Assembly (NCBI RefSeq): GCF_037042905.1
Contig: NC_087247.1
Coordinates: 63,123,097-63,187,096, forward strand
Direction: 5' to 3'
Length of the DNA: 64,000 nt
Source: Lytechinus pictus
Taxonomy: Eukaryota
Part shown: piece after piece, positions 15,588 to 53,360 of the stretch
Numbering within the stretch: the stretch's first letter is position 1
Layout: every line of letters begins with the position of its first letter
The notes under the pieces: generated by a model
The model's input: only the letters and a program-made list of their open reading frames with translations
What the model was told of the DNA's origin: nothing
The model's database searches: none
Position numbers and translations under genes: made by a program

Positions 15588-17556
<1,969 letters not shown>

Positions 17557-24927: not shown

Positions 24928-25673
24928 GTAATCCTGATATATCCATATCACCATTATGATATTATAAAATACAGTCATGAACAGCTACTCTAAAAAACGT
25001 ACTGCAACCTTTACAGAAACTGAAATACAATCGGCGACATGTTCATAATTTCGATTGATACATTGGCAGAATATTTACGAAACGGAGTGAAAAGAATGAC
25101 ATTTCCATCAAAGTCTTTGATATACAGTAGATCTATCGAAATTCTTATATATCGATGGATGGAATCTTAATATGGCATTCCGAAAATTATTATAGCAGTT
25201 AACGTATTTTACGAGTTTATCCTTTTGGGCTTTCAAATGAAATAATTATATTGGTTACTATGGATGATTCTCCAACTACATTGACTAACCTGTATGATGA
25301 TAATAGTTCGTTTAAATATCTATGTTCGATTCATCCTAGATTACCTTCTGTGCTATACGTAACGACGCCTTCATGAATCATACACAAACTTATACCTCAA
25401 CTCCCCTCATTTGCGGTGTCTTTCTCTCAACGTGCTTAGAGAAGGCAAATTATGTCCTATGGGATTATAAAAAGGTTTAATTATTAGGCCCTACGTTTAT
25501 TTTTATTATCGTTATTATTCTGATTTTGAATTATGAATTGAAAATAGTTCAACTGATACTTTAAATAATGACACATTTTAGAAGTTTGACATAAAGAATT
25601 CTTTTTGTTTAATTCAAAATTGTATATAGGAATCATTTTCAATTAAAAATATGTTTACCTTTTTTATTTTTAG

Positions 25674-25857
25674 TACTTGTTCAAAGTACTCCACACCTGG
25701 TAAGTTTACAGGAACACGCTTCTTAGCAATCAACAACGTAGCCCTTGGGAAAATGAAGGATATCTATGAGAAGAGGACAGATATTGAGTGTGCACCTGAA
25801 GGATTTGAAAGCGTTCATGGTGTTAGGAAGACTGAGCAAAATGAATCCTTCTTTGTG
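25674..25857 (+). CDS. PARP4: PARP4-like exon I (catalytic domain)
   Basis: Acceptor ttttag|T, donor TTTGTG|GTATGA. Translation STCSKYSTPGKFTGTRFLAINNVALGKMKDIYEKRTDIECAPEGFESVHGVRKTEQNESFFV resembles human STSIKYSHPGETDGTRLLLICDVALGKCMDLHEKDFSLTEAPPGYDSVHGVSQTASVTTDF. Confidence 0.9.
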
Positions 25858-26330
25858 GTATGATTGATTAAAATTCATATTTTTACAAACGCACCCTCAC
25901 TCCCTCTCCTAACGCACCACATATTCATACTCACTCCCACCTACATACGCTCTCCTCTACACACCATAAGTTATAAACCTCTCTCTCTATCTCACACATA
26001 CCCCACACCCAACCACCAACCCAAACACTAACACCCCACATACCCTCATCACCCACTATCATTCTAACTTACATACACCCATTCGCTCTTGCACTCCAAC
26101 AAATTAGCGAATTAACACACTATGACTGTTTAGAAAAAGCTTAATTCCGTTGGAGAAAATCCATGTATTTCAAGACAGTTTAGCCAAAATATTTTAATTA
26201 TTCTACGTTCTCTGTAAAATATAAAATCGTATATATTTCACAAAATATGTTGCAGATTATGCAGTAAGTAATTTTATCTTGCACAAAATTTTAACCAAAG
26301 TTAGGATTTTGTTTATGTAAATGATTTTAG

Positions 26331-26514: not shown

Positions 26515-26827
26515 GTATACTAAGTACATACACTTCCACACTTATTGAACATGTGTGGATGACTTTATCATTAAGTTTTCTATGTCTATTCATATTAGAT
26601 TTAATTACGAAAGTCAAATTTAAGTGCGTCGTAGAGTATTGTACTTGATACTCAAGAAACTCAGATATTGTGTTATATTCAACCAAACCTACAGAGTCAG
26701 TTATTACACAAAGTAATGATTGCTCTTTTGCTATGTTTCTTTGTCCCAGTGTTATCTTTTTTGACAGCTGTCAGAAACATACATCTTTCATTTCAAGATA
26801 ATTATTTCAAACTGTTTCTCAATATTA

Positions 26828-26958
26828 GACATCCTTGATGTGCAAGGAATGGTGTATCCTGAAGCCAAGGTCAAGGCAGGTCTTAATACAACAGGTGAAG
26901 GTCAAGTTGAATTAGAAGCTGTTCATGTCAGGGCATCAATCATTGACCTGGCAGCAGA
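26828..26958 (+). CDS. PARP4: PARP4-like exon K (start of VIT domain)
   Basis: Acceptor aatattag|AC, donor GCAGAG|GTAATT. Translation DILDVQGMVYPEAKVKAGLNTTGEGQVELEAVHVRASIIDLAAE resembles human ..LPDAKTSSSTKAGLQDASGNLVPLEDVHIKGRIIDTVAQ. Confidence 0.8.
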
Positions 26959-27561
26959 GGTAATTTTCAATCCATAATACTGCACTTATGTCAACTCTCA
27001 TCTAATATCAATGGTGTTATTATTCATATCTGGTGTTATTGACACAAAATCATTGAAAACATACAAAATTGAAAGTAAACTACTGCATTATGCGTTATCC
27101 AACCGTTCTTTGGTATTACACATTTTCACACTGGTTGTCTTCTATGACATATTGACTTTATGTTTATTTACATTTTTTTTTCAAAAGAGATATATTTGTT
27201 ATAATGATAAAGACAGTATGTGAACTGTAAATCTACAACACAGTTTTCATATGATTGCCTACGTGTGATTAAATAATAAAATTTATTTCTTTTTATGTGA
27301 ATTCGGCTCATGAATAAAATTCTTTTAAAACGTTTGAACCGCAAACGTCTTTACGGAGTTGAATGGCAGAAATTGAGAGCTACATGTATATAATTCGGAT
27401 AAGCATTGAAGCTATGAAATAGATGACGAGGATCTGTGAAATTTATTTTTTTTGTCTATAATCCTATCACCAATGTCAGTGACAATGAAGTGACTTTGGG
27501 TTCATTCGCTACCAGTGAAACTATGGAACATATTTTTACTTATCAATTACATTTTTCCAAG

Positions 27562-27780
27562 GTAATTGTTCTGCAGAAGTACCGAAACATTGGTGAGCAG
27601 ACTGCGGAAACCCGTTACGTCTTTCCTCTTGATGAGCGAGCAGCTGTTTGTGGATTCGATGCCTATATCAATGGCAAACACGTCATCGGGATAGTAGAGG
27701 AGAAAGAACAAGCGCGGAAGTCATATGACAAAGCTAAAGAACAAGGACATGGGGCTTACCTCATGGAAGAAGAGGCAGCG
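27562..27780 (+). CDS. PARP4: PARP4-like exon L (VIT domain)
   Basis: Acceptor tttttccaag|GTA, donor GCAGCG|GTTAGT; 73 codons. Translation VIVLQKYRNIGEQTAETRYVFPLDERAAVCGFDAYINGKHVIGIVEEKEQARKSYDKAKEQGHGAYLMEEEAA resembles human VIVFQTYTNKSHVPIEAKYIFPLDDKAAVCGFEAFINGKHIVGEIKEKEEAQQEYLEAVTQGHGAYLM. Confidence 0.9.
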
Positions 27781-28140: not shown

Positions 28141-30104
<1,964 letters not shown>

Positions 30105-32143: not shown

Positions 32144-32330
32144 GCGTGCATGGTGGTATTTTATCCGGAGTTTCCTGTGACAACTATAGAGAACCCTGAA
32201 GTAGTCATCATGTTAGATCGTTCGACATCCATGAAAGGACAACCAATGAATGATGCTAAGAAGTTGGTGCATATGGTATTAGAAAGCCTTCCTCCACAGA
32301 GCCGTTATAACCTTGTCGTTTTTGGAAATG
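32144..32330 (+). CDS. PARP4: PARP4-like exon P (VWA domain with the metal-ion-dependent adhesion site, MIDAS, motif DxSxS)
   Basis: Acceptor aaactttag|GCG, donor AAATG|GTATGT, ending in phase 1. Translation ACMVVFYPEFPVTTIENPEVVIMLDRSTSMKGQPMNDAKKLVHMVLESLPPQSRYNLVVFGNG resembles human ACMLVFQPDLDVDLPDLASESEVIICLDCSSSMEGVTFLQAKQIALHALSLVGEKQKVNIIQFGTG. Confidence 0.9.
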
Positions 32331-32846
32331 GTATGTATTCGGAAGCAAACTGAATGAGTGATAACAAGTCAATTCAGCAAACATTCAAAATAGACTGATG
32401 GTTCAGCAGTCTTTTTCAGTATCTAAAAATGAGATTAGAATATTCTAGAACGATCAGACATGGAGCTGGAATCAGATAAAAGGTGCGATCAATATATTAC
32501 CATGCAAAGAATCCACCCAGAATACTCTATACTATAAGCCATTCTTCTCTAATAACTTTACCACTTGAAATGTGTTTAATAACAGGTATTCATGCGATGG
32601 CTTTTTTAAATCAAGGACATTCCAGAAATAGTATTTTAATGTGGCTAATATCATACCAGATGGGGATTTGGGCTTGGTTTTATTGAATTCATAGGGTACG
32701 GTAATCGAGAACTGTAGTTCAGTCTCTGTGCAATTCAGCGTGGAATAGTTGTAACCAACTCATGCGACGTGCGTATAACCATTTAAGTTAAACACCTACA
32801 GATTTTCATTTTCGTTATAGATTTAATCGTTATCATTTTCACTTAG

Positions 32847-33114
32847 ATTTCGATGAGTTATACCCAACTAGCGTCTTAGCAACTGATGAGAACATCAAAC
32901 ACACTGAATCGTTTTTGATGACGGTAACTTGGGAGCGTGGAGCTACAGAGGTTTGGAGGCCATTGAGAGCTATGTCTCTTCTCTCATCTAGCGATGTTCG
33001 TCTTACCAGCAACGGATTTCTTATCTCTGATGGCCACGTGACAAATGAACAAGATACGCTCTTAGAAGTAGCGAGTAATCGCCAAATCAATCGCCTCTTC
33101 ACATTCGGAGTCAG
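32847..33114 (+). CDS. PARP4: PARP4-like exon Q (VWA domain)
   Basis: Acceptor ttcacttag|AT, donor GTCAG|GTAACT. The segment ..WERGATEVWRPLRAMSLLSSSDVRLTSNGFLISDGHVTNEQDTLLEVASNRQINRLFTFGV resembles human ..MGNTDFWKTLRYLSLLYPARGSRNILLVSDGHLQDESLTLQLVKRSRPHTRLFACGIG. Confidence 0.9.
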
Positions 33115-33555
33115 GTAACTACGTAACTTTAATTTGATTAGATTTTATGTACTTATGAATTATATGATGCTGTATAGTTTTGCAATGTAATGTGTCTGTG
33201 TGACTGGTGTTAGCTGGTCAGTGACGTCACATGCTAAGTGTTTGGTTTGTCAGGTTTAGTGTTATATTGTGTAATGTGATGTTGTGTGGTTTGTTTCTAT
33301 GCTAAGTGATGTGGTTTGATGTGATGTAATGTGATGTCTTTGATGGTGATATTTAGTGTGAGGTGATTTGCACTGATTTTTTTTTTAGGTTTGGTTTGGC
33401 GTAGGTGTTTATTGTTGCTGAGATGTTACATGATGCAATAATTGTGATACATTCGAAATCGATGTTCATCCATTGTTATGCGGAAAGTGAAGTGTGAAGT
33501 GATAACTTTTGAATTAAGTGGTTTTGAACATGAAATTTATTTTGTATTATTTCAG

Positions 33556-38907: not shown

Positions 38908-39050
38908 GCGTGTCTTGCTTTAGCACAATTTCATCTTCGAGTAAAGGGCGAAGTACAAGAGGCACACAAGGTGTTATTTGATTGTATGCACGAGAGCGAT
39001 GGACTACCCAATACTGATCTCGACCGGAAACTAACTAACATGGCAAAGAT
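38908..39050 (+). CDS. PARP4: PARP4-like exon X
   Basis: Acceptor aattttatag|GCG, donor AAAGAT|GTAAGA, ending in phase 2. Translation is ACLALAQFHLRVKGEVQEAHKVLFDCMHESDGLPNTDLDRKLTNMAK. Its phase 2 end joins the 1-base start of exon Y. Confidence 0.55.
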
Positions 39051-39794
39051 GTAAGAGTGACTTTCAATACATTTCCTGATGATTTTAATCTCTTTTGTCA
39101 AATAAACATCAAAATACTCTGATGAAGCATTTTGAATTAAGGCATTTTCTCACTCATTTAATTGATTTAAATTGCAATGATATGTTACATCATGTGATTC
39201 TTTTATGTAATCTTATGTAATCTAGTGTAAATAGGGCATGGTGCTGATATGACTTGAAATGCCTTTTTTATGACGATTTGTATTGTACATGCTATAATAT
39301 CATGTAAAATGATGATAACGTAAACGTTTTTACATCACGGTTGTCTTTATCTGATTACAAACATTTCGTTAAAATTGTGGGACAATCTGTTTCGTTAAAT
39401 GCTTCATAAATTACAAATTCGCAGATTTAGGAAAAATTGTTCTTGACCAAAATCAGCAGAGAGTAAAAAGCTTTCGAATTTAATTGAGAATAAATTGAAA
39501 TCGAAAGTCGCTATTGATACTCCTCGAAAATTAATGACAAAGTGTCCCCTCTACTTGATTCGACCATTGATAAGTAAAACCATGATGCAAATGATAAAAG
39601 CACTGTCCATGTTATTTTGTTTTGTTCAACTAAATTGCTCAAAAAAACAACAACTGAATTTTATCCCTTTGTATTTATGAAATTGGGTAAGCAAGTGCGG
39701 TGTCGATTCTGGCTATATATCGATAACCGTGTTACTGTCCTATCGATATCTCTTCATCAATGAACTATCTTCATGCTCATACTTTATGCTGCAG

Positions 39795-41703
39795 ATGCAA
39801 AAATCTACTAAACAAGGAAGACCTTAAGACGTGGAAAGACCAAAAGCAAGCGGTGGAAATGGGAACTTCTATCAGCACATGTGATGAATTAGAATCTGAG
39901 TCTCTGGTTCTCGAAGAAGAAATAATTGTTCCTGAGGAAGAGACTGTTGTCATGAGTTCCCCTCCTATAGATCAAGGTTTAGAAGTCATAGCCGTGGAGG
40001 AGGTGAAATCTATGCCATTATTTCTCGAGGAAGAAACATACTACGAAGCTTCATGTGATGTCTACGAGACGGTGGAGGAAATAACAGTTTATCATCCAGT
40101 ATTATTGAAAGCAGCTCCAGAGCAGGCAGCCCAAGAGTTACCCATCATGCATGAAATTAAATCAGTCAGTAAAGAATCTTACATTGCAGAACATGCTGAG
40201 ATAATCGAATGTATCGAGCCATCAGAAAAAATGGAGTTACGAGCTGAGTCACCCGTGATGTTGGAGGCAAGACGAGCTCCTTCACCAGTGATGTTGGAGG
40301 CAAGACGAGCTCCTTCACCAGTGATGTTGGAGGCAAGACAAGAGCTATCACCAGTGATGTTGGTGGCAAGACGAGAGCTATCACCAGTGATGTTGGAGGC
40401 AAGACGAGAGCCATCACCAGTGATGTTGGAGGCAAGACGAGCTCCTTCACCAGTGATGTTGGAGGCAAGACGAGCTCCTTCACCAGTGATGTTGGAGGCA
40501 AGACGAGAGCTATCACCGGTGATGATGGAGGCAAGACGAGAGCCATCACCAGTGATGTTGGAGGCAAGACGGGAGCCATCACCGGTGATGTTGGAGGCAA
40601 GACGAGCTCCTTCACCAGTGATGTTACAGCGTGATGAATCTCCCGTGCTCATGATGCGCGAATCAGCCAAACTTTCATACGCATTGGCAGAACATGACGA
40701 GAGAGTCCAATTACAGCGTATTGAGCCAGTAGAAATGGAGTTACGAGCTGAGTCACCCGTGATGTTGGAGGCAAGACGAGCTCCTTCACCCGTGATGATG
40801 GAGGTAAGACGAGAGCCATCACCAGTGATGTTGGAGGCAAGACGAGAGCCATCACCAGTGATGTTGGAGGCAAGACGAGAGCCATCACCAGTGATGTTGG
40901 AGGTAAGACGAGCTCCTTCACCCGTGATGATGGAGGTAAGACGAGCTCCTTCACCAGTGATGTTACAGCGTGATGAATCTCCCGTGCTCATGATGCGTGA
41001 GGTTCAATCAGTCCAGCTCTCATACGCAACAGCCGTGGCAGAACCTGTTGAGACAGTCCAACTAGAGCTGGAACTACGAGCCAAATCACCCGTGATGTTG
41101 GACGAAATACGAACGCCGTCACCGGTGATGTTACAGCGTGCTGAATCTCCTGTGTTAATGATGCGTGATGCTCAATCAGCACAGCTTTCATATGAAATGG
41201 CAAAACCTGTTAAGACAGTCCAATTAGAGCCTATTGAGTCAGAAGAACTGGAACTACGAGCCGAATCACCCATGATTTTGGATGCGGTACGACCTGTGTC
41301 ACCGTTGTTGTTGGAGGCAAGAAGAGCCCCGTCACCAGTGATGTTGGAAGCAGTCCAAGAAGTGAAAATGTCACTAGCAAGTGCTGTTGCGGAACCCATT
41401 GAACGACTACATGTTGAAAGCAGAGATGAGGAGTTAGAAGAGATTGAGGTCCGTGCTTCATTACTTGATCAGATATTTGAGACGGTTCGATCGACCAAGT
41501 TACATGATGACGTTCAAGATCATGTTGAGAAGCTACGACGGATGCCTGATGCCTGTGCTCCCTACAAATCGTATCTGGCGACTTCTCCCAAAGACAAAAA
41601 AGATGAGAGTGTGAACGACGAGAAGAAGGTTGATGGGGTTGTGAATGATCAAGATAAACCAGGAATTGAAACAATGAGGCGTTTGCTAAAGATATCACAA
41701 GAG
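39795..41703 (+). CDS. PARP4: PARP4-like exon Y: 636-codon tandem-repeat exon (about 25 copies of SPVMLEARR[AE][PL], separated by QRDESPVLMMR. spacers)
   Basis: Acceptor tgctgcag|A, donor CACAAGAG|GTGAGT. A single long ORF sits in the same frame as exons X and Z. It lies where human PARP4 has its S/P-rich low-complexity region, and it ends ..DKPGIETMRRLLKISQE. Confidence 0.65.
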
Positions 41704-44401: not shown

Positions 44402-44709
44402 GGATGTCATCGATGGATGAAATCAAGACGATTGTAGCATCGGCTCTAGTGCTGTCTATTTTTGATACATGGGTATCACGGGTAGAATTCATGGTTTCTA
44501 TACTGATGAAAGATGACCCTGAAATTCTCTTTATTCCTGCTCAAATACAAGAGTGGTTTAAGCATTGCTTACCCATTGATGTCATTCAGTTACACACTAT
44601 GGCCTTTGGCGAATCATCCACCTGGTCTTCAATCCTGGAGCGATTTCCACCTGATGTCATCGAGGATGTTATACGGCCTATCAGGAATTGCATGATCAAT
44701 ACTCGTTAA
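44402..44709 (+). CDS. PARP4: PARP4-like terminal exon AA (stop codon at 44707-44709)
   Basis: Acceptor ccttcttgcag|GG. Translation (W)MSSMDEIKTIVASALVLSIFDTWVSRVEFMVSILMKDDPEILFIPAQIQEWFKHC...NTR* resembles human ..DLIATMLVLQFIRTRLEKEGIVFKSLMKMDD. Confidence 0.7.
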
Positions 44710-48326: not shown

Positions 48327-48362
<36 letters not shown>

Positions 48363-50600
48363 CCCAGCACGCGACGGGGAGTTTGTTTAATGTCACCCGC
48401 AACGTTCGGCACGCGCATAATGGGACACTAACTTGGAACGATTTTTGTGATAAATACGGCGAACATGTGGTTGGAAAATTGGTTATATCTCCAGAAAATG
48501 CACGTATATGCAGCTAAATTTGGTATCAGTGTAAAGCATGAACTATAACAAAGACCGTCATGGTATTTACAGAGCAGCAATCGGCAGCAATTTGTAAAAG
48601 AAATGCTCATGAAAAAACCAATTTCCAAAAACCCCCATTGTCAAATGGTTTCGTCCAAAATTGCCTCTGAAGGGATTATCATTTTATCTTGAAAATCTTT
48701 GATCACTGAAAACAATCATTTATCAAAGAGCACAGTGAATTAGAAATAAATTAAGCAATCCGTTTTGTTAAAACAGTGAAATATCTAAAACGTGTCATTT
48801 ACACATGCGGTAGCCGTAAAGAGTCATTTTCCGGTAATATTGAATAAAAATGAGCAACTAATAATCAATGTAATGGAGAAATATTGTATGGAGGCATTAT
48901 ACAGGTTATTATCTTTGATTAGAACATGAAAAAAAAACAAAATTTGGTTCATGACCAAAAACCAGTTTTGGCGCACTTTTGCTCTCTCCTGGCCCACTGT
49001 GCGCCGGTTTTCCGACGGCGGCGTCAACACCAAATCTTAACCGAAGGTTAAGTTTTTGAAATGATAGCATAACTTAGAAAGTATATGGACCTACTGTAGT
49101 TCATGAAACTTGGCCACAAGGTTAATCAAGTATTACTAAAGACCCTGCTTGAGTTTCAGGTCACATGATCAAGGTCAAAGGTCATTTAGGGTCAATGAAC
49201 TTAGATCATGTTGTTGGAATCAACATCAAAATCTTAACCTAAGGTTACGTTTTTTGAAATGTCATCATAACTTAAAAAACATATAAACCTAGTTCATGAA
49301 ACTTTGACATAAGGTCAATCAAGTATCACTGAACATCCTTCAGCTTACATGATCAAGGTCAAATGCCATTTAAGGTCAATGAACTTTGGCCACGTTGGGG
49401 GTATTTGTTGAATTACCATCATAACTTTGAAAGTTTATTGGTCTAGTTCATAAAATTTGGATATAAGAGTAATCAAGTATCACTGAACATCCTTCAGCTC
49501 ACATGATCAAGGTCAAATGTCATTTAAGGTCAATTAACTTTGGCCACGTTGGGGGTATTTGTTGAATTACCATCATAACTTTGAAAGTTTATTGGTCTAG
49601 TTCATAAAATTTGGATATAAGAGTAATCAAGTATTTCTTAACATCATGTGCGAGTTTCAGGTCACATGACCAAGGTCAAAGGTCAATGAACTTTCGCCAT
49701 GTTGGGGGCATCTGTTGAATTACCATCATAACTTTGAATGTTTATGGATGTGATTCATGAAACTTGGACATAAGATTGTAATCAAGTATCACTGAACATC
49801 CTTCAGCTCACATGATCAAGGTCAAATGTCATTTAAGGTCAATTAACTTTGGCCACGTTGGGGGTATTTGTTGAATTACCATCATAACTTTGAAAGTTTA
49901 TTGGTCTAGTTCATAAAATTTGGATATAAGAGTAATCAAGTATCACTTAACATCATGTGCGAGTTTTAGGTCACATGACTAAGGTCAAAGGTCGTTTATG
50001 GTCAATAAACTTTAACTATGTTGGGGTTATTTGTTGAATTACCATTATAACTCTGTAAGTGTATTGGTCTAGTTCATAAAACTTGGACATAAGAGTAATC
50101 AAGTAACACCGAACATCATGTGCGAGTTTCAGGTCACATGACTAAAGTCAACGGACTTTGGCCATGTTGGGGTTATTTGTTGAATAACCATCATAACTCT
50201 AAAAGTGTATGTATCTAGTTCATGAAACTTAGACATAAGAGTAATCAAGTATAACTGAACATCTCATGCGAGTTTCTTGTCACATGATCAAAGTCAAATG
50301 TCATTTAAGGTCATCGAACTGTGGCCATTTTGGAGGTAATTATTAGATTGCTGTCATAAATTTCAAAGTTTATAATAAAGTTTATAAAATGTGGATATAG
50401 AGGTAATCAAGTATCACTGACAAGTCTTAGGTCGCATGATCAAGGTCAAATGTCATTTATTGTCAATGAACGAAGTATTTTATCATTATATGAATGGTGT
50501 TTTTTGTGAATAATTATTTTATGGTAGTTTTCAAAGTCAGCACTGCTGCTATATTGAATCGCGCGATGCAGGTGAGACTGCCAGAGGCGCTCCACTTGTT
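46925..50600 (+). mobile_element. TIR element carrying a ~175-bp satellite, with a nested ~1.95-kb insertion in its 5' end
   Basis: The 5' end TCTCACCTGCGAAGCAGAGTGAGACTGTAGGC and the 3' end ATGCAGGTGAGACTGCCAGAGGCGCTCCACTTG at 50560-50600 are homologous to the short copy at 57765-58255. The inverted 35-bp pair 46985-47020 and 48955-48990 brackets the inserted segment. The satellite spans 49030-50480. Confidence 0.6.
49030..50480 (+). repeat. Tandem satellite, ~175-bp unit x ~8, each unit containing AGGTCAAAGGTCA-type direct repeats
   Basis: Units recur with TAACTTTGAAAGTTTATTGGTCTAGTTCATAAAATTTGGATATAAGAGTAATCAAGTATCACTGAACATCCTTCAGCTCACATGATCAAGGTCAAATGTCATTTAAGGTCAAT. Confidence 0.9.
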
Positions 50601-50949: not shown

Positions 50950-53360
50950 CAATCACACATTAATATTCTCTAAAACTGAGGAGGGATTATCGATCAAAGA
51001 CAGATTTCTAAACTTTTTTGAGGAGTTTATATATATATATATATATATAAACACATAAGGGTGTGTGTGTGCGTGCGTGTGTGTGTGAGTGTATGTATCA
51101 CAAAGGCAGGGAGTGATTACACTATTAGAAAAGGAAGGCAAAAACCCTTTATACATTCAAAACTATAGACCAATCACGCTTTTAAATGTTGATTACAAGA
51201 TCTTATCAAAGGTATTAGCAAAAAGATTGAAAAAGGTTCTGAATGAGATAATTCATATTGATCAAATAGGGTATGTTGAAAATAGGAACATTGGAGATGG
51301 TGTGAGATTAATCGATGATATTTTATTTCAGTCCTCTTTTGGAAATATTGGATATTTGATCACGGTGGACTTTAAAAAGGCTTTTGATTCTGTTTCCCAT
51401 GATTTTCTTTTTCAGACTCTTAAATTATTTGGATTTGGCCAGTCTTTCTGTTCTTGGGTTCGTGTTTTATATACAGATATAACTAGTTGTATTATGAATG
51501 GAGGTTATTCCACTGGTTATTTTGATATAAAACGAGGGGTAAGACAGGGGGACCTCCTTTCTCCTTATATGTTTTTGCTGTGTATAGAAACACTAGCTTT
51601 GGCAATAAGAAGAGACGCTCTAGTTGAAGGAATTCAGTTTGGATCTCATGAAATTAAGCAAATATTGTATGCCGATGATATCACTCTGTTTGTTAAAAAT
51701 AGCAATTCTGTTAAACGGCTTAAATATCTTTTGGAAGAATTCGAAAAAGTGAGCGGTCTGAAGATAAACAAAGGGAAAACTAACTTTTTTTGGATGGGAA
51801 AAGATCAAGACAGACCTCAAACTCCGCTATTTGGAAATTTGGTTCAGCAAATTAAAATCTTAGGCGTTTATTTCTCTCTAAATGTAATAATAAAAGAAGA
51901 TCTCAACTTCAAAGAGATACTTAGCAAAATAAAAAGACTTTTGGGATGGTGGAAACAAAGGGATCTAACCCTAATGGGTAAAATACATTTGTTGAAAAGT
52001 TATGCATTATCAAAATTAAATTACGTCTCGTCACTTTTAGTTGTTCCTAACTGGTTGTTCGTTGAGGTGGAACGGATCACTTTTGAGTTTTTATGGTCAG
52101 GTAAAGACCGTATAAAGAGAAACATTATGTATCAGGATTACTCACACGGTGGGTTAAGAATGATGAATTTTAAGTTGTTCATAAAGGCCCAACGTCTAAT
52201 GTGGCTGAAACGTCTATTATACGGGGAACGCAATGCTGGGTGGAAATTGTATTTTGATTTCTGTTTTAGATCACTCGGTGGGAGACTGTTATTTCTATGC
52301 GATTTTGATAATTACAAATTAACACAGACAATGCCACAATTTTATTCTGAAATGCTGAAGGCTTGGCAAGATATGAGAAAATATAGATATACAAAAGAGG
52401 AAGTAAACCCGATTATATTTAATAATAAGAATGTATGTGTAAGAGGTAAAATGATTTTTGATATTGATCTTTATAATAAGGGAATATACACTGTAGATCA
52501 TATTTTTGATAACGGGGTTGTGAGACCTGTGGCTTATTTTCAAAATCTTGGGGTAACCGCAGATGAACTGCTCCACATTATTGATATAGTACATGCTATT
52601 CCAACTACTTGGAAAAATGCCTATAGCTCTATTAAATTTATAAAGATTGACGATGAGAACTTCAATGTTAATTGGAATATCAGTAAGCTGGAAACTACTT
52701 TTGAGGTGATTAAATAAAAAACGATTTATAGTTGTTTTGTTGAAAATTTACGGGAAACTTATAATTTAACATTGAAAGATAAAAACATTAATTTGAATTT
52801 TACAGATGTTGAAATGTGTAATAGGCTTGCCCAAACCAGGAGCATAACTTTGATTAGGAAACAAAGAGAATTCCAGTTCTTACTTTTACACGGGGCGATT
52901 TATACCAAAGAACAGTTATTGAGATTTGGGTATGTTAAAGACAGTTTATGCTCTTTTTGTGGCAGAGAAACCGAATCATACATTCATATTTTTCTAAATT
53001 GTTCCAAGGTAAAACCTTTATGGGAATTTTTTATTAAATATTTCTGTATGTCTGAATTAAGAGATTTAGAATGGAGAGATATACATTTGGGATTATCTGG
53101 AAGTACGAATAAAAATAATTGTGTAAACTGTATAATCTTTTTCATCAAATATGCCATTTTCCAATCCAGAACTAATGGTCAGGTTCCTTCCTGCCATAAA
53201 ATACAAAAATATATTGCGGAACGTAGAGAGGAAGAAAAATGCTTAGCTATAAAATCGGGCAAATTGAGTTTGCATGTAAGGAAATGGGAAGAACTGAAGG
53301 TGAATGAGGCAGTGAATGCAAACAGGTGTGAAGCGTCTGCTGGTGCTGTGAGTATGTAAT
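50950..53360 (+). mobile_element. 5'-truncated CR1/L2-like LINE (reverse transcriptase plus C-terminal zinc-finger region) with one in-frame stop
   Basis: ORF 51089-52717 has the RT motifs NYRPITLLNVDYKILSKVLAKRL, KAFDSVSHDFL and YADDITLF. ORF 52772-53359 is in the same frame after a single TAA and contains CSFCGRETESYIHIFLNCSKVKPLWEFF. No endonuclease domain is present. (AT)n(GT)n lies at 51011-51095. Confidence 0.8.

Follow-up and report, generated by a model that had tools for sequence, protein, structure and literature searches.

A probable hypervariable linker exon of a sea-urchin PARP4 gene built around a nested in-frame coding minisatellite

We analysed a 64,000-nt stretch of Lytechinus pictus DNA (contig NC_087247.1, positions 63,123,097 to 63,187,096 of the forward strand), referred to here as the window. 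Its plus strand carries a PARP4-like gene whose largest exon, at 39795 to 41703, contains tandem repeats nested within the coding frame. We interpret this exon as the large hypervariable linker exon of sea-urchin PARP4 (vPARP), with a nested in-frame coding minisatellite at its centre and a product that would act as a tether displaying the short motif SPVML. The probability of this reading is put at about 0.72. The exon and its neighbours are located as follows.

38908 to 39053, plus strand: preceding exon (exon X), with two bases of a split codon at its end (AT/A, Ile)
39795 to 41703, plus strand: putative hypervariable linker exon, the largest of the PARP4-like gene, with AG/GT borders, an open frame, the junctions of Strongylocentrotus purpuratus and about 40% amino acid identity
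43722 to 43854, plus strand: following exon (exon Z), encoding DNDGWWTW…, with a phase 0 start (GAT AAT GAC) and one base at its end
44402 to 44709, plus strand: last coding exon, closed by the stop codon TAA (44707-44709) and, with exon Z, encoding a 146-aa C-terminal region

The repeat exon is bordered by the acceptor …tgctgcag/ATGC at 39795 and the donor CAAGAG/gtgagt after 41703. Between these sites lie 1909 nt, corresponding to one base and 636 codons with no stop. Exon X ends with …AAG AT/gtaag, and the A provided by the repeat exon completes an Ile codon. The last codon of the repeat exon (GAG) is whole. Exon Z ends with …AAA T/gtaagt and the final exon opens with GG, resulting in a Trp codon (T/GG). 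An earlier sequence-only reading of this DNA had proposed a 1.9-kb exon here that forms one open reading frame (ORF) in the correct phase between exons X and Z. Both proposals were borne out, since the borders fall exactly after tgcag and before gtgagt and the junction codons fit both neighbours. Two predicted, RefSeq-derived S. purpuratus proteins, P0027 and P0131, have identical junctions (TNMAKI/CKNLLN, KISHE/DNDGWW and LADK/W/MSSM), and the same splice layout was found in a 14-kb ENA contig, L001. The periods of the repeat, 33, 165, 504, 333 and 180 nt, are all multiples of 3. By its sequence features, 39795-41703 belongs to the coding exons of a PARP4-type gene and is in phase with both neighbours.

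The identity of the gene was assessed from its upstream exons. The window is AT-rich eukaryotic DNA, and exon-like ORFs on its plus strand upstream of the repeat exon match the Pfam PARP, VIT and VWA families in that order. A catalytic (ART) domain of the PARP1-4 type is therefore present in the gene, with VIT and then vWA downstream of it.

25672 to 25857, plus strand: exon of the PARP catalytic domain (Pfam PF00644, matched on 25651-25863; tblastn)
27556 to 27777, plus strand: VIT-domain exon (Pfam PF08487; together with the next exon, human PARP4 641-758)
32144 to 32335, plus strand: vWA-domain exon (Pfam VWA families; human PARP4 859-920)

Human PARP4 (PDB chain 11jf_P, 1724 aa) was the best match among PDB sequences, and the S. 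purpuratus orthologue matched the human PARP4 catalytic chains 8sx1 and 8swy with E values of 1e-71 and 3e-48. Among 5.8 billion clustered proteins, the product of the repeat exon had two relatives only, one of them being P0001, which is encoded on L001. An exhaustive HMMER search returned P0027 at E 8e-81. The source name of this protein is PREDICTED poly [ADP-ribose] polymerase 4, Strongylocentrotus purpuratus (XP_011683810.1), and its cluster includes the fuller S. purpuratus model P0131 (UniParc UPI000222B9BA, 2043 aa). With the S. purpuratus models, which begin at the equivalent of human PARP4 residue ~205, at least 26 collinear exons could be mapped by tblastn from ~18.1 kb to 44.7 kb. 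Exon by exon, L001 and the window are collinear, with a nucleotide identity of 75-88%, the introns being unalignable. Reading of the sequences gave ~96% identity between L001 and P0027/P0131 over the non-repeat start of the exon, and L001 thus originates from S. purpuratus itself or from a species very close to it. Judged by domain order and by alignment over these exons, the window gene is a PARP4 orthologue, in agreement with the earlier assignment to a PARP4-type gene. Among the mapped exons, the one at 26825-26965 has the highest identity to P0027 (97.9%), followed by a vWA exon at 32849-33124 (plus strand) with 95.7% protein identity to P0027 843-934. From residue 937 on, P0027 contains a diverged second copy of this 843-934 segment (…DGHVTNEQDTLLEVASNRQINRLFTFGVS / …DGHVTNEQVTLLDVASNRQIIRLFTFGVS), which suggests a duplicated exon or a haplotig in the gene model.

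The repeat exon has a nested architecture. Tandem Repeats Finder (TRF) detected period-33 arrays at 40249-40625 (11.4 copies) and 40753-40964 (6.4 copies) with 91% matches, and in addition overlapping periods of 66 and 99 nt. The 28-nt core of the unit was matched 17 times at up to 3 mismatches, always within the exon, where shuffled sequences gave an expectation of 0; the repeat is thus real and not a dispersed element. The parts of the exon are as follows.

39796 to 40233, plus strand: acidic non-repetitive N-part, residues 1-146, with 20% Glu and a net charge of -0.17 per residue
40234 to 40737, plus strand: super-unit 1, 168 aa, consisting of an ELRAE head, an 11-mer array, an SPVMLQRDE-SPVLMMRE closer and a spacer
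40249 to 40611, plus strand: array 1, 11 tandem 33-nt units, SPVMLEARRAP and variants (TRF, unit-core scan)
40738 to 41070, plus strand: super-unit 2, 111 aa, with the layout of super-unit 1
40753 to 40950, plus strand: array 2, 6 tandem 33-nt units, 3 of them with an A>V variant (GAGGTAAGA) that is private to this array
41071 to 41250, plus strand: super-unit 3, 60 aa, unexpanded, with one 11-mer and then two closer motifs
41251 to 41418, plus strand: super-unit 4, ~56 aa, degenerate, with three SPx motifs and without the QRxESPVLMMR closer
41419 to 41703, plus strand: conserved non-repetitive tail ..CAPYKSYLATS..GIETMRRLLKISQE (tblastx to L001; predicted helical at its end)

The 17 near-identical 33-nt units have a mean pairwise nucleotide identity of 0.90 and comprise 8 RRAP, 6 RREP, 2 RREL and 1 RQEL variants. 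Ten further SPx motifs are diverged, some of them in 9-residue or longer contexts. The sequence-only reading had named the same four variants, all of which are present, and had counted about 25 near-identical units. Only 17 (11 + 6) deserve that description, and a total of 27 SPV-motifs is reached when the 10 diverged ones are included. Its view that the exon consists almost entirely of repeats was too generous: the repeat zone, 40234-41364, covers 1131 of the 1909 nt (59%) and the pure arrays 561 nt (29%), and the 146-aa N-part and a 113-aa C-part are non-repetitive. Likewise, instead of two super-repeats of ~150 residues we found four super-units, starting at 40234, 40738, 41071 and 41251 and anchored by ELRA[EK]SP. 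Super-units 1 and 2 are closed by QRDESPVLMMRE, super-unit 3 ends with QRAESPVLMMRD and super-unit 4 has no closer. Array 1 shows a higher-order period of 5 units (165 nt), in the order AP AP EL EL EP / AP AP EL EP EP / AP. Ten positions vary among the units, and the variation is ordered. The A>V variant creates AG/GTAAG, a strong look-alike of a 5' splice site, at 40802, 40901 and 40934; the other 14 units read AG/GCAAG. The RRAP units contain an acceptor look-alike, CTCCTTCACCAG, at 40277, 40310, 40442, 40475, 40607, 40781, 40913 and 40946.

The conservation of the motif was counted over 27 window and 27 S. purpuratus instances. Ser is present in 27/27 and 23/27 of them, respectively, Pro in 27/27 of both and Val in 25/27 and 26/27. 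The core S-P-V-M-[LM] is therefore nearly invariant, and it is the only conserved part of the unit. Its codons vary synonymously (TCA/TCT, CCA/CCC/CCG/CCT, GTG/GTA/GTC, TTG/TTA), while the remainder of the unit differs by species, with EARRAP in the window and EAELAS or QAQRAQ in S. purpuratus. A core that is kept through synonymous codons next to a variable remainder is what selection on a short linear motif at the protein level leaves behind. The codon pattern thus points to protein-level constraint on S-P-V-M-[LM] within a fast-changing scaffold. An 834-aa intron-less ORF, P0002, was considered as another carrier of the motif, since its [LA]RAESPVM repeats are similar to the super-unit head, ELRAESPVML. 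Its loci, L002 and L003, are 3.3-kb 'metagenome' contigs (GCA_013332995.1 JAAUXV010000423.1; ENA ERZ23486772). In addition, P0002 contains an extended region rich in proline and a segment that looks WH2-like by eye, LLDSIQKGVVLKK, with no Pfam match.

As had been claimed, every unit carries an S-P site (27/27 motif instances), and the exon has 29 SP dipeptides, one per unit. These sites would be suited to a phospho-regulated module, in which proline-directed kinases act on S-P and expansion multiplies the switches for vault association or for PARP4 conformation. The retention of Ser despite synonymous codon changes is in line with such a module, and RRxPSPVML resembles a MAPK docking motif, the ELM D-motif (basic residues, a spacer of 2-4 residues and hydrophobic-x-hydrophobic). 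However, Ser is replaced by Pro in three units of S. purpuratus and is thus not strictly required. The residue at +3 is Met, whereas cyclin-dependent kinases favour Lys/Arg, the basic pair is not kept in S. purpuratus (EAELAS, QAQRAQ), and motifs of such low information often match by chance. We regard a phospho-regulated module as rather unlikely to be the main explanation of the array.

We compared the exon with its S. purpuratus orthologue. The repeat exon, with its 1909 nt, has ~40% amino acid identity to S. purpuratus; the other mapped exons, of up to ~280 nt, have 63-98%. Its product is 636 aa long in the window and 798 aa in S. purpuratus, and exactly 146 aa follow the exon in both. In the N-part, short stretches only are alignable to S. 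purpuratus, and the exon tail is kept between the window and L001 (CAPYK[ST]YLATS…GIETMRRLLKIS[QH]E, tblastx). In S. purpuratus, a 192-nt (64-aa) unit is present in 7.0 copies with 95% matches (TRF on L001), followed by 2-3 degenerate units. Each S. purpuratus unit contains SPVMLEAE[RL]AS, SPVMLQA[QR]RAQ and SPVQMVHAVQSAQRSY…, and long 11-mer arrays are absent. Super-unit 3 of the window has the motif layout of this 64-aa unit and is the nearest to it in length. When the inner arrays are collapsed, the window super-units and the S. purpuratus units align to one common pattern. Identities are 79-96% among the S. purpuratus units S1-S7, 65-82% among the window super-units W1-W3 and 53-69% between the species. 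Since the units cluster by species, the expansions are lineage-specific.

This comparison indicates that an array of ~60-aa units is ancestral and that the inner 11-codon unit expanded in the window lineage after the split, the S. purpuratus lineage having amplified or homogenised the whole 192-nt unit, also after the split. The expansion had been called recent, in line with the missing 11-mer arrays of S. purpuratus and the grouping of units by species. The S. purpuratus PARP4 proteins and L001 thus resemble the window in their exon junctions, in a super-unit of ~60-64 aa, in the SPVML core, in the tail and in the 146 aa that follow. They differ in the level of amplification: S. purpuratus has multiplied the 192-nt unit, in 7 copies that each keep 2 + 1 motifs, and the window the 33-nt unit (11 + 6) within four super-units. 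P0131 and P0001 both have 7 units, but the order of variants differs between them, which hints at ongoing exchange and is the single hint of the copy-number polymorphism that the sequence-only reading had thought likely; L001, the source of P0001, is a 4x assembly. A second copy of the window allele was found neither in the clustered-protein search nor, with the 28-nt unit core as probe, in a scan of metagenome contigs of the Joint Genome Institute (JGI) (0 matches). At L001 7440-7650 the frame of the orthologous exon breaks, relative to P0131, after the seventh 192-nt unit. This is probably an error of the low-coverage (4x) assembly, or else an allelic difference.

Synonymous divergence (Ks) between the window and L001 is ~0.7-0.9, which together with the unalignable introns shows that the window derives from an echinoid other than S. 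purpuratus. The ratio of nonsynonymous (Ka) to synonymous divergence is 0.2-0.6 in the alignable flanks of the repeat exon and 0.1-0.3 in the other exons (Ka 0.22-0.52 and 0.07-0.21), rough values with Ks near saturation, the repeat zone itself not being alignable position by position. The Ka/Ks of exon X was obtained with L001 coordinates that were off by one.

In the tandem unit, stop codons are missing from four of the six frames, and antisense ORFs of 149-270 aa run through the repeat exon. Across the non-repeat flanks only the sense frame is open, and the antisense ORFs are a by-product of the repeat, as the sequence-only reading had stated. The four open frames, and the 3 donor-like AG/GTAAG and 8 acceptor-like sites inside the arrays, could also belong to a segment without a coding role as a whole, namely a minisatellite, intronic or otherwise non-coding, whose ORF is accidental, an exon that is normally spliced out internally or an array inflated by the assembly. 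Against such an origin, the sense frame is open across 259 non-repeat codons also. Splice sites, phases and tail are conserved at Ks ~0.8 while introns are unalignable, and the core residues are kept through synonymous changes. Splicing from an internal donor to an internal acceptor removes 22+33k nt and shifts the frame. Finally, ordered differences at 10 positions are unlike a collapsed or duplicated assembly artefact. A non-functional origin is therefore highly improbable.

The position of the exon was compared with human PARP4. With phmmer, the S. purpuratus protein aligned to human residues 205-1208 (envelope to 1227) and to nothing beyond. The repeat exon starts just past the end of this homology (~1208-1227) and is followed by 146 aa, so that its position matches the variable segment of human PARP4, as had been suggested. 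In human PARP4, an intrinsically disordered segment joins the ITIH-like region to a helical domain that interacts with major vault protein (MVP), residues 1570-1724 (PMC10450202). The same C-terminal domain has been defined as MINT, 1562-1724 (PMC12280208, PMC2169495). According to Daugherty et al., the disordered segment is specified by PARP4's largest exon, exon 30 (~360 aa), which is nearly all disordered, has dN/dS > 1 and among vertebrates is 'highly variable' in both its sequence and its length (PMC4038475).

The urchin exon shares with vertebrate exon 30 the gene family, the position and the status as largest exon, as well as excess divergence and length variation. At least part of it may be disordered as well. 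In contrast to the ~360 aa of human exon 30, the urchin exons encode ~636-798 aa. Their variation is mostly a nested turnover of tandem repeats, of which the literature searched gives no description in vertebrates, and the alignable urchin flanks give rough Ka/Ks values of 0.2-0.6 where the vertebrate exon has dN/dS > 1. We regard the exon as an invertebrate counterpart of the vertebrate PARP4 hypervariable exon 30 and not as a new kind of element.

For the vertebrate exon, dN/dS > 1 and the length variation across species have led to the proposal of a pathogen interface (PMC4038475). The urchin segment might also contact pathogen factors and diversify, here by repeat turnover too, with the SPVML array as a multivalent bait or decoy. 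The radical lineage-specific restructuring of the orthologous urchin exon would fit such a host-pathogen interface, and so would the different variant order of the two S. purpuratus-lineage sequences. However, no alignable flank has a Ka/Ks > 1, the motif core is conserved and not diversifying, and no pathogen partner is known. Moreover, relaxed constraint combined with slippage accounts for the same pattern. We consider a host-pathogen role unlikely, and it would in any case be compatible with a tether.

Our preferred reading, a hypervariable linker exon that encodes a tether, can be formulated as follows. The exon would encode the stretch that links the ITIH-like body (VIT + vWA) to the C-terminal region of ~146 residues, whose counterpart in human PARP4 would be the vault-docking (MINT/MVPID) domain. 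An ancestral unit of ~60-64 aa, ELRAxSPVML..SPVMLQxxRAxSPVxM..QSxQxSY..AEPVE.., would already have been tandem in the common ancestor with S. purpuratus. In the window lineage the inner 33-nt sub-unit then multiplied to 11 copies in one array and 6 in the other. Replication slippage or unequal exchange is the likeliest mechanism, which we infer from the nested architecture and the clustering of units by species. A block of 5 units and an entire super-unit would have been duplicated in this expansion. In S. purpuratus the 192-nt unit was brought to 7 homogeneous copies. The product may be a long, flexible and fast-evolving tether inside the vault, its length set by the number of repeats, that displays many SPVML short linear motifs to a partner or a modifying enzyme. 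The S-P sites may in addition be phosphorylated, and a role at a pathogen interface may coexist with the tether, as these options are not exclusive.

The structural predictions bear on the flexibility of this tether. In the repeat zone, Pro makes up 13% and charged residues 30%, the net charge is near zero and <1% of the residues are aromatic. Single-sequence AlphaFold2 (AF2) models gave a predicted local distance difference test (pLDDT) score of ~29 for exon residues 1-128 and helices near the exon end (547-564, 570-581 and 618-635). Several results weigh against the tether. By charge-hydropathy, the repeat zone is not classed as disordered. In the best AF2 model, each 11-mer of array 1 forms one beta-strand with pLDDT 65-80, as if the arrays were a folded domain of regular beta-structure with an amphipathic VMLEA strand per unit and RRAPSP turns; the alternation of V/L/A with M/E/R along the strand suits this fold. 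Nevertheless, the strands were seen in 1/5 AF2 models, with the other four averaging 31-35, and AF2 is prone to regular beta arrangements on perfect repeats. Two prolines per 11 residues also speak against such a domain. Since S. purpuratus has no long 11-mer array, the domain would moreover be lineage-specific, and we find it very doubtful. The weakness of AF2 on perfect repeats and the absence of the arrays from S. purpuratus lead us to lean towards a flexible linker.

Further points of this kind concern the C-terminal region. The 146 aa are conserved between the urchins, but searches of this region for the MINT domain with phmmer and with a two-sequence profile gave 0 matches. An hhalign comparison with human 1584-1724 gave a collinear 71-column match that is weak (E = 0.29). 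AF2 modelling of the S. purpuratus C-terminus from a four-row alignment was all-helical at low confidence (pLDDT 46), and Foldseek of the C-terminal model against the PDB gave no meaningful match. A third homologue search, made to deepen this alignment, added one fragment only. Sea-urchin vaults show bands of ~200 kDa, and the genome has been stated to contain a VPARP homologue, as 'data not shown' (PMC550661). To the same side of the balance belong the status of the S. purpuratus gene models, which are predictions, and the roughness of the Ka/Ks values. The repeat number in the window could also be wrong if the assembly was made from short reads.

The repeat can be placed among known systems. 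Coding minisatellites and exonic variable-number tandem repeats (VNTRs), such as the central exons of mucins (PMC6269512, PMC2065792), likewise consist of in-frame units of tens of nucleotides, placed head to tail in one exon of very large size. They too show higher-order periodicity and evolve in concert, and their copy number is expected to be unstable. The exon fits this class, as its 33-nt units are arranged head to tail, are a multiple of 3 and keep the frame. Unlike mucins, with their secreted Ser/Thr-rich O-glycosylated domain, it would encode the linker of an intracellular enzyme, with ~1% Thr and 9% Ser. A match to Pfam PF16058 Mucin-like (48 bits) came from the pure 11-mer array only (31 bits for the array alone). 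Super-unit, flanks and S. purpuratus PARP4 gave no match to this family, and we rejected membership as an artefact of periodicity and composition. The ~100 weak matches of the exhaustive search were rejected too, being unrelated 11-residue proline repeats and not homologues. Among unrelated animal proteins, P0029 (CKAVSPISIVA), P0033 (ELSPEPLPVAR), P0036 (RRRRFPEPVAL) and P0040 (STRGPSPAMKE) share the 11-residue period and an xSP/xEP turn, but have other units in other proteins and no common flanks, which reflects periodicity and composition and not homology. Proteins of this kind make up nearly all the weak matches of the exhaustive search. The four named here are large and have long arrays, and a period of 11 residues combined with an S/E-P turn seems to be recurrent in coding tandem repeats.

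Other elements were observed outside the exon. Downstream of the PARP4 gene, at 51089-53359 (plus strand), lies a non-LTR (long terminal repeat) retrotransposon remnant with a 542-aa RVT_1 ORF (E 1e-38) followed by a 195-aa zf-RVT ORF. An intronic purine/pyrimidine microsatellite at 28152-28543 gives rise to spurious ORFs on both strands (ERKKERKK…, FFLSFFLS…). Simple repeats of a similar kind are located near 17250-17420 and 48337-48363, and such repeats cross-match L001 14042-14134.

Parts of this picture are already known. The predicted S. purpuratus PARP4 including the exon is in databases, the hypervariable exon of vertebrates has been described, and exonic minisatellites are common. Our literature search found no paper on tandem repeats in the equivalent of PARP4 exon 30 and no invertebrate analysis of the exon. 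The main value of our analysis is the comparative evidence for a nested, lineage-specific expansion around a conserved SPVML core. The exon is also likely to be a VNTR and to cause trouble in assembly and annotation.

Vaults have classically been obtained from sea-urchin eggs. The one rapidly evolving segment of PARP4 has so far been analysed only in vertebrates. Our data suggest that the same exon is hypervariable in sea urchins too, with a readable mechanism, the in-frame expansion at different hierarchical levels in each lineage. The five-residue core SPVML that survives this turnover is a concrete candidate motif for a partner of the linker. More speculatively, and with little expectation on our side, the vault PARP linker could be a deuterostome-wide, rapidly restructuring interface, in which nested repeat turnover around SPVML provides echinoderms with a multivalent binding or bait surface in the vault lumen for cargo, kinase or pathogen factors. 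If this is true, the repeat number would be a tunable and possibly polymorphic determinant of vault content or immunity.

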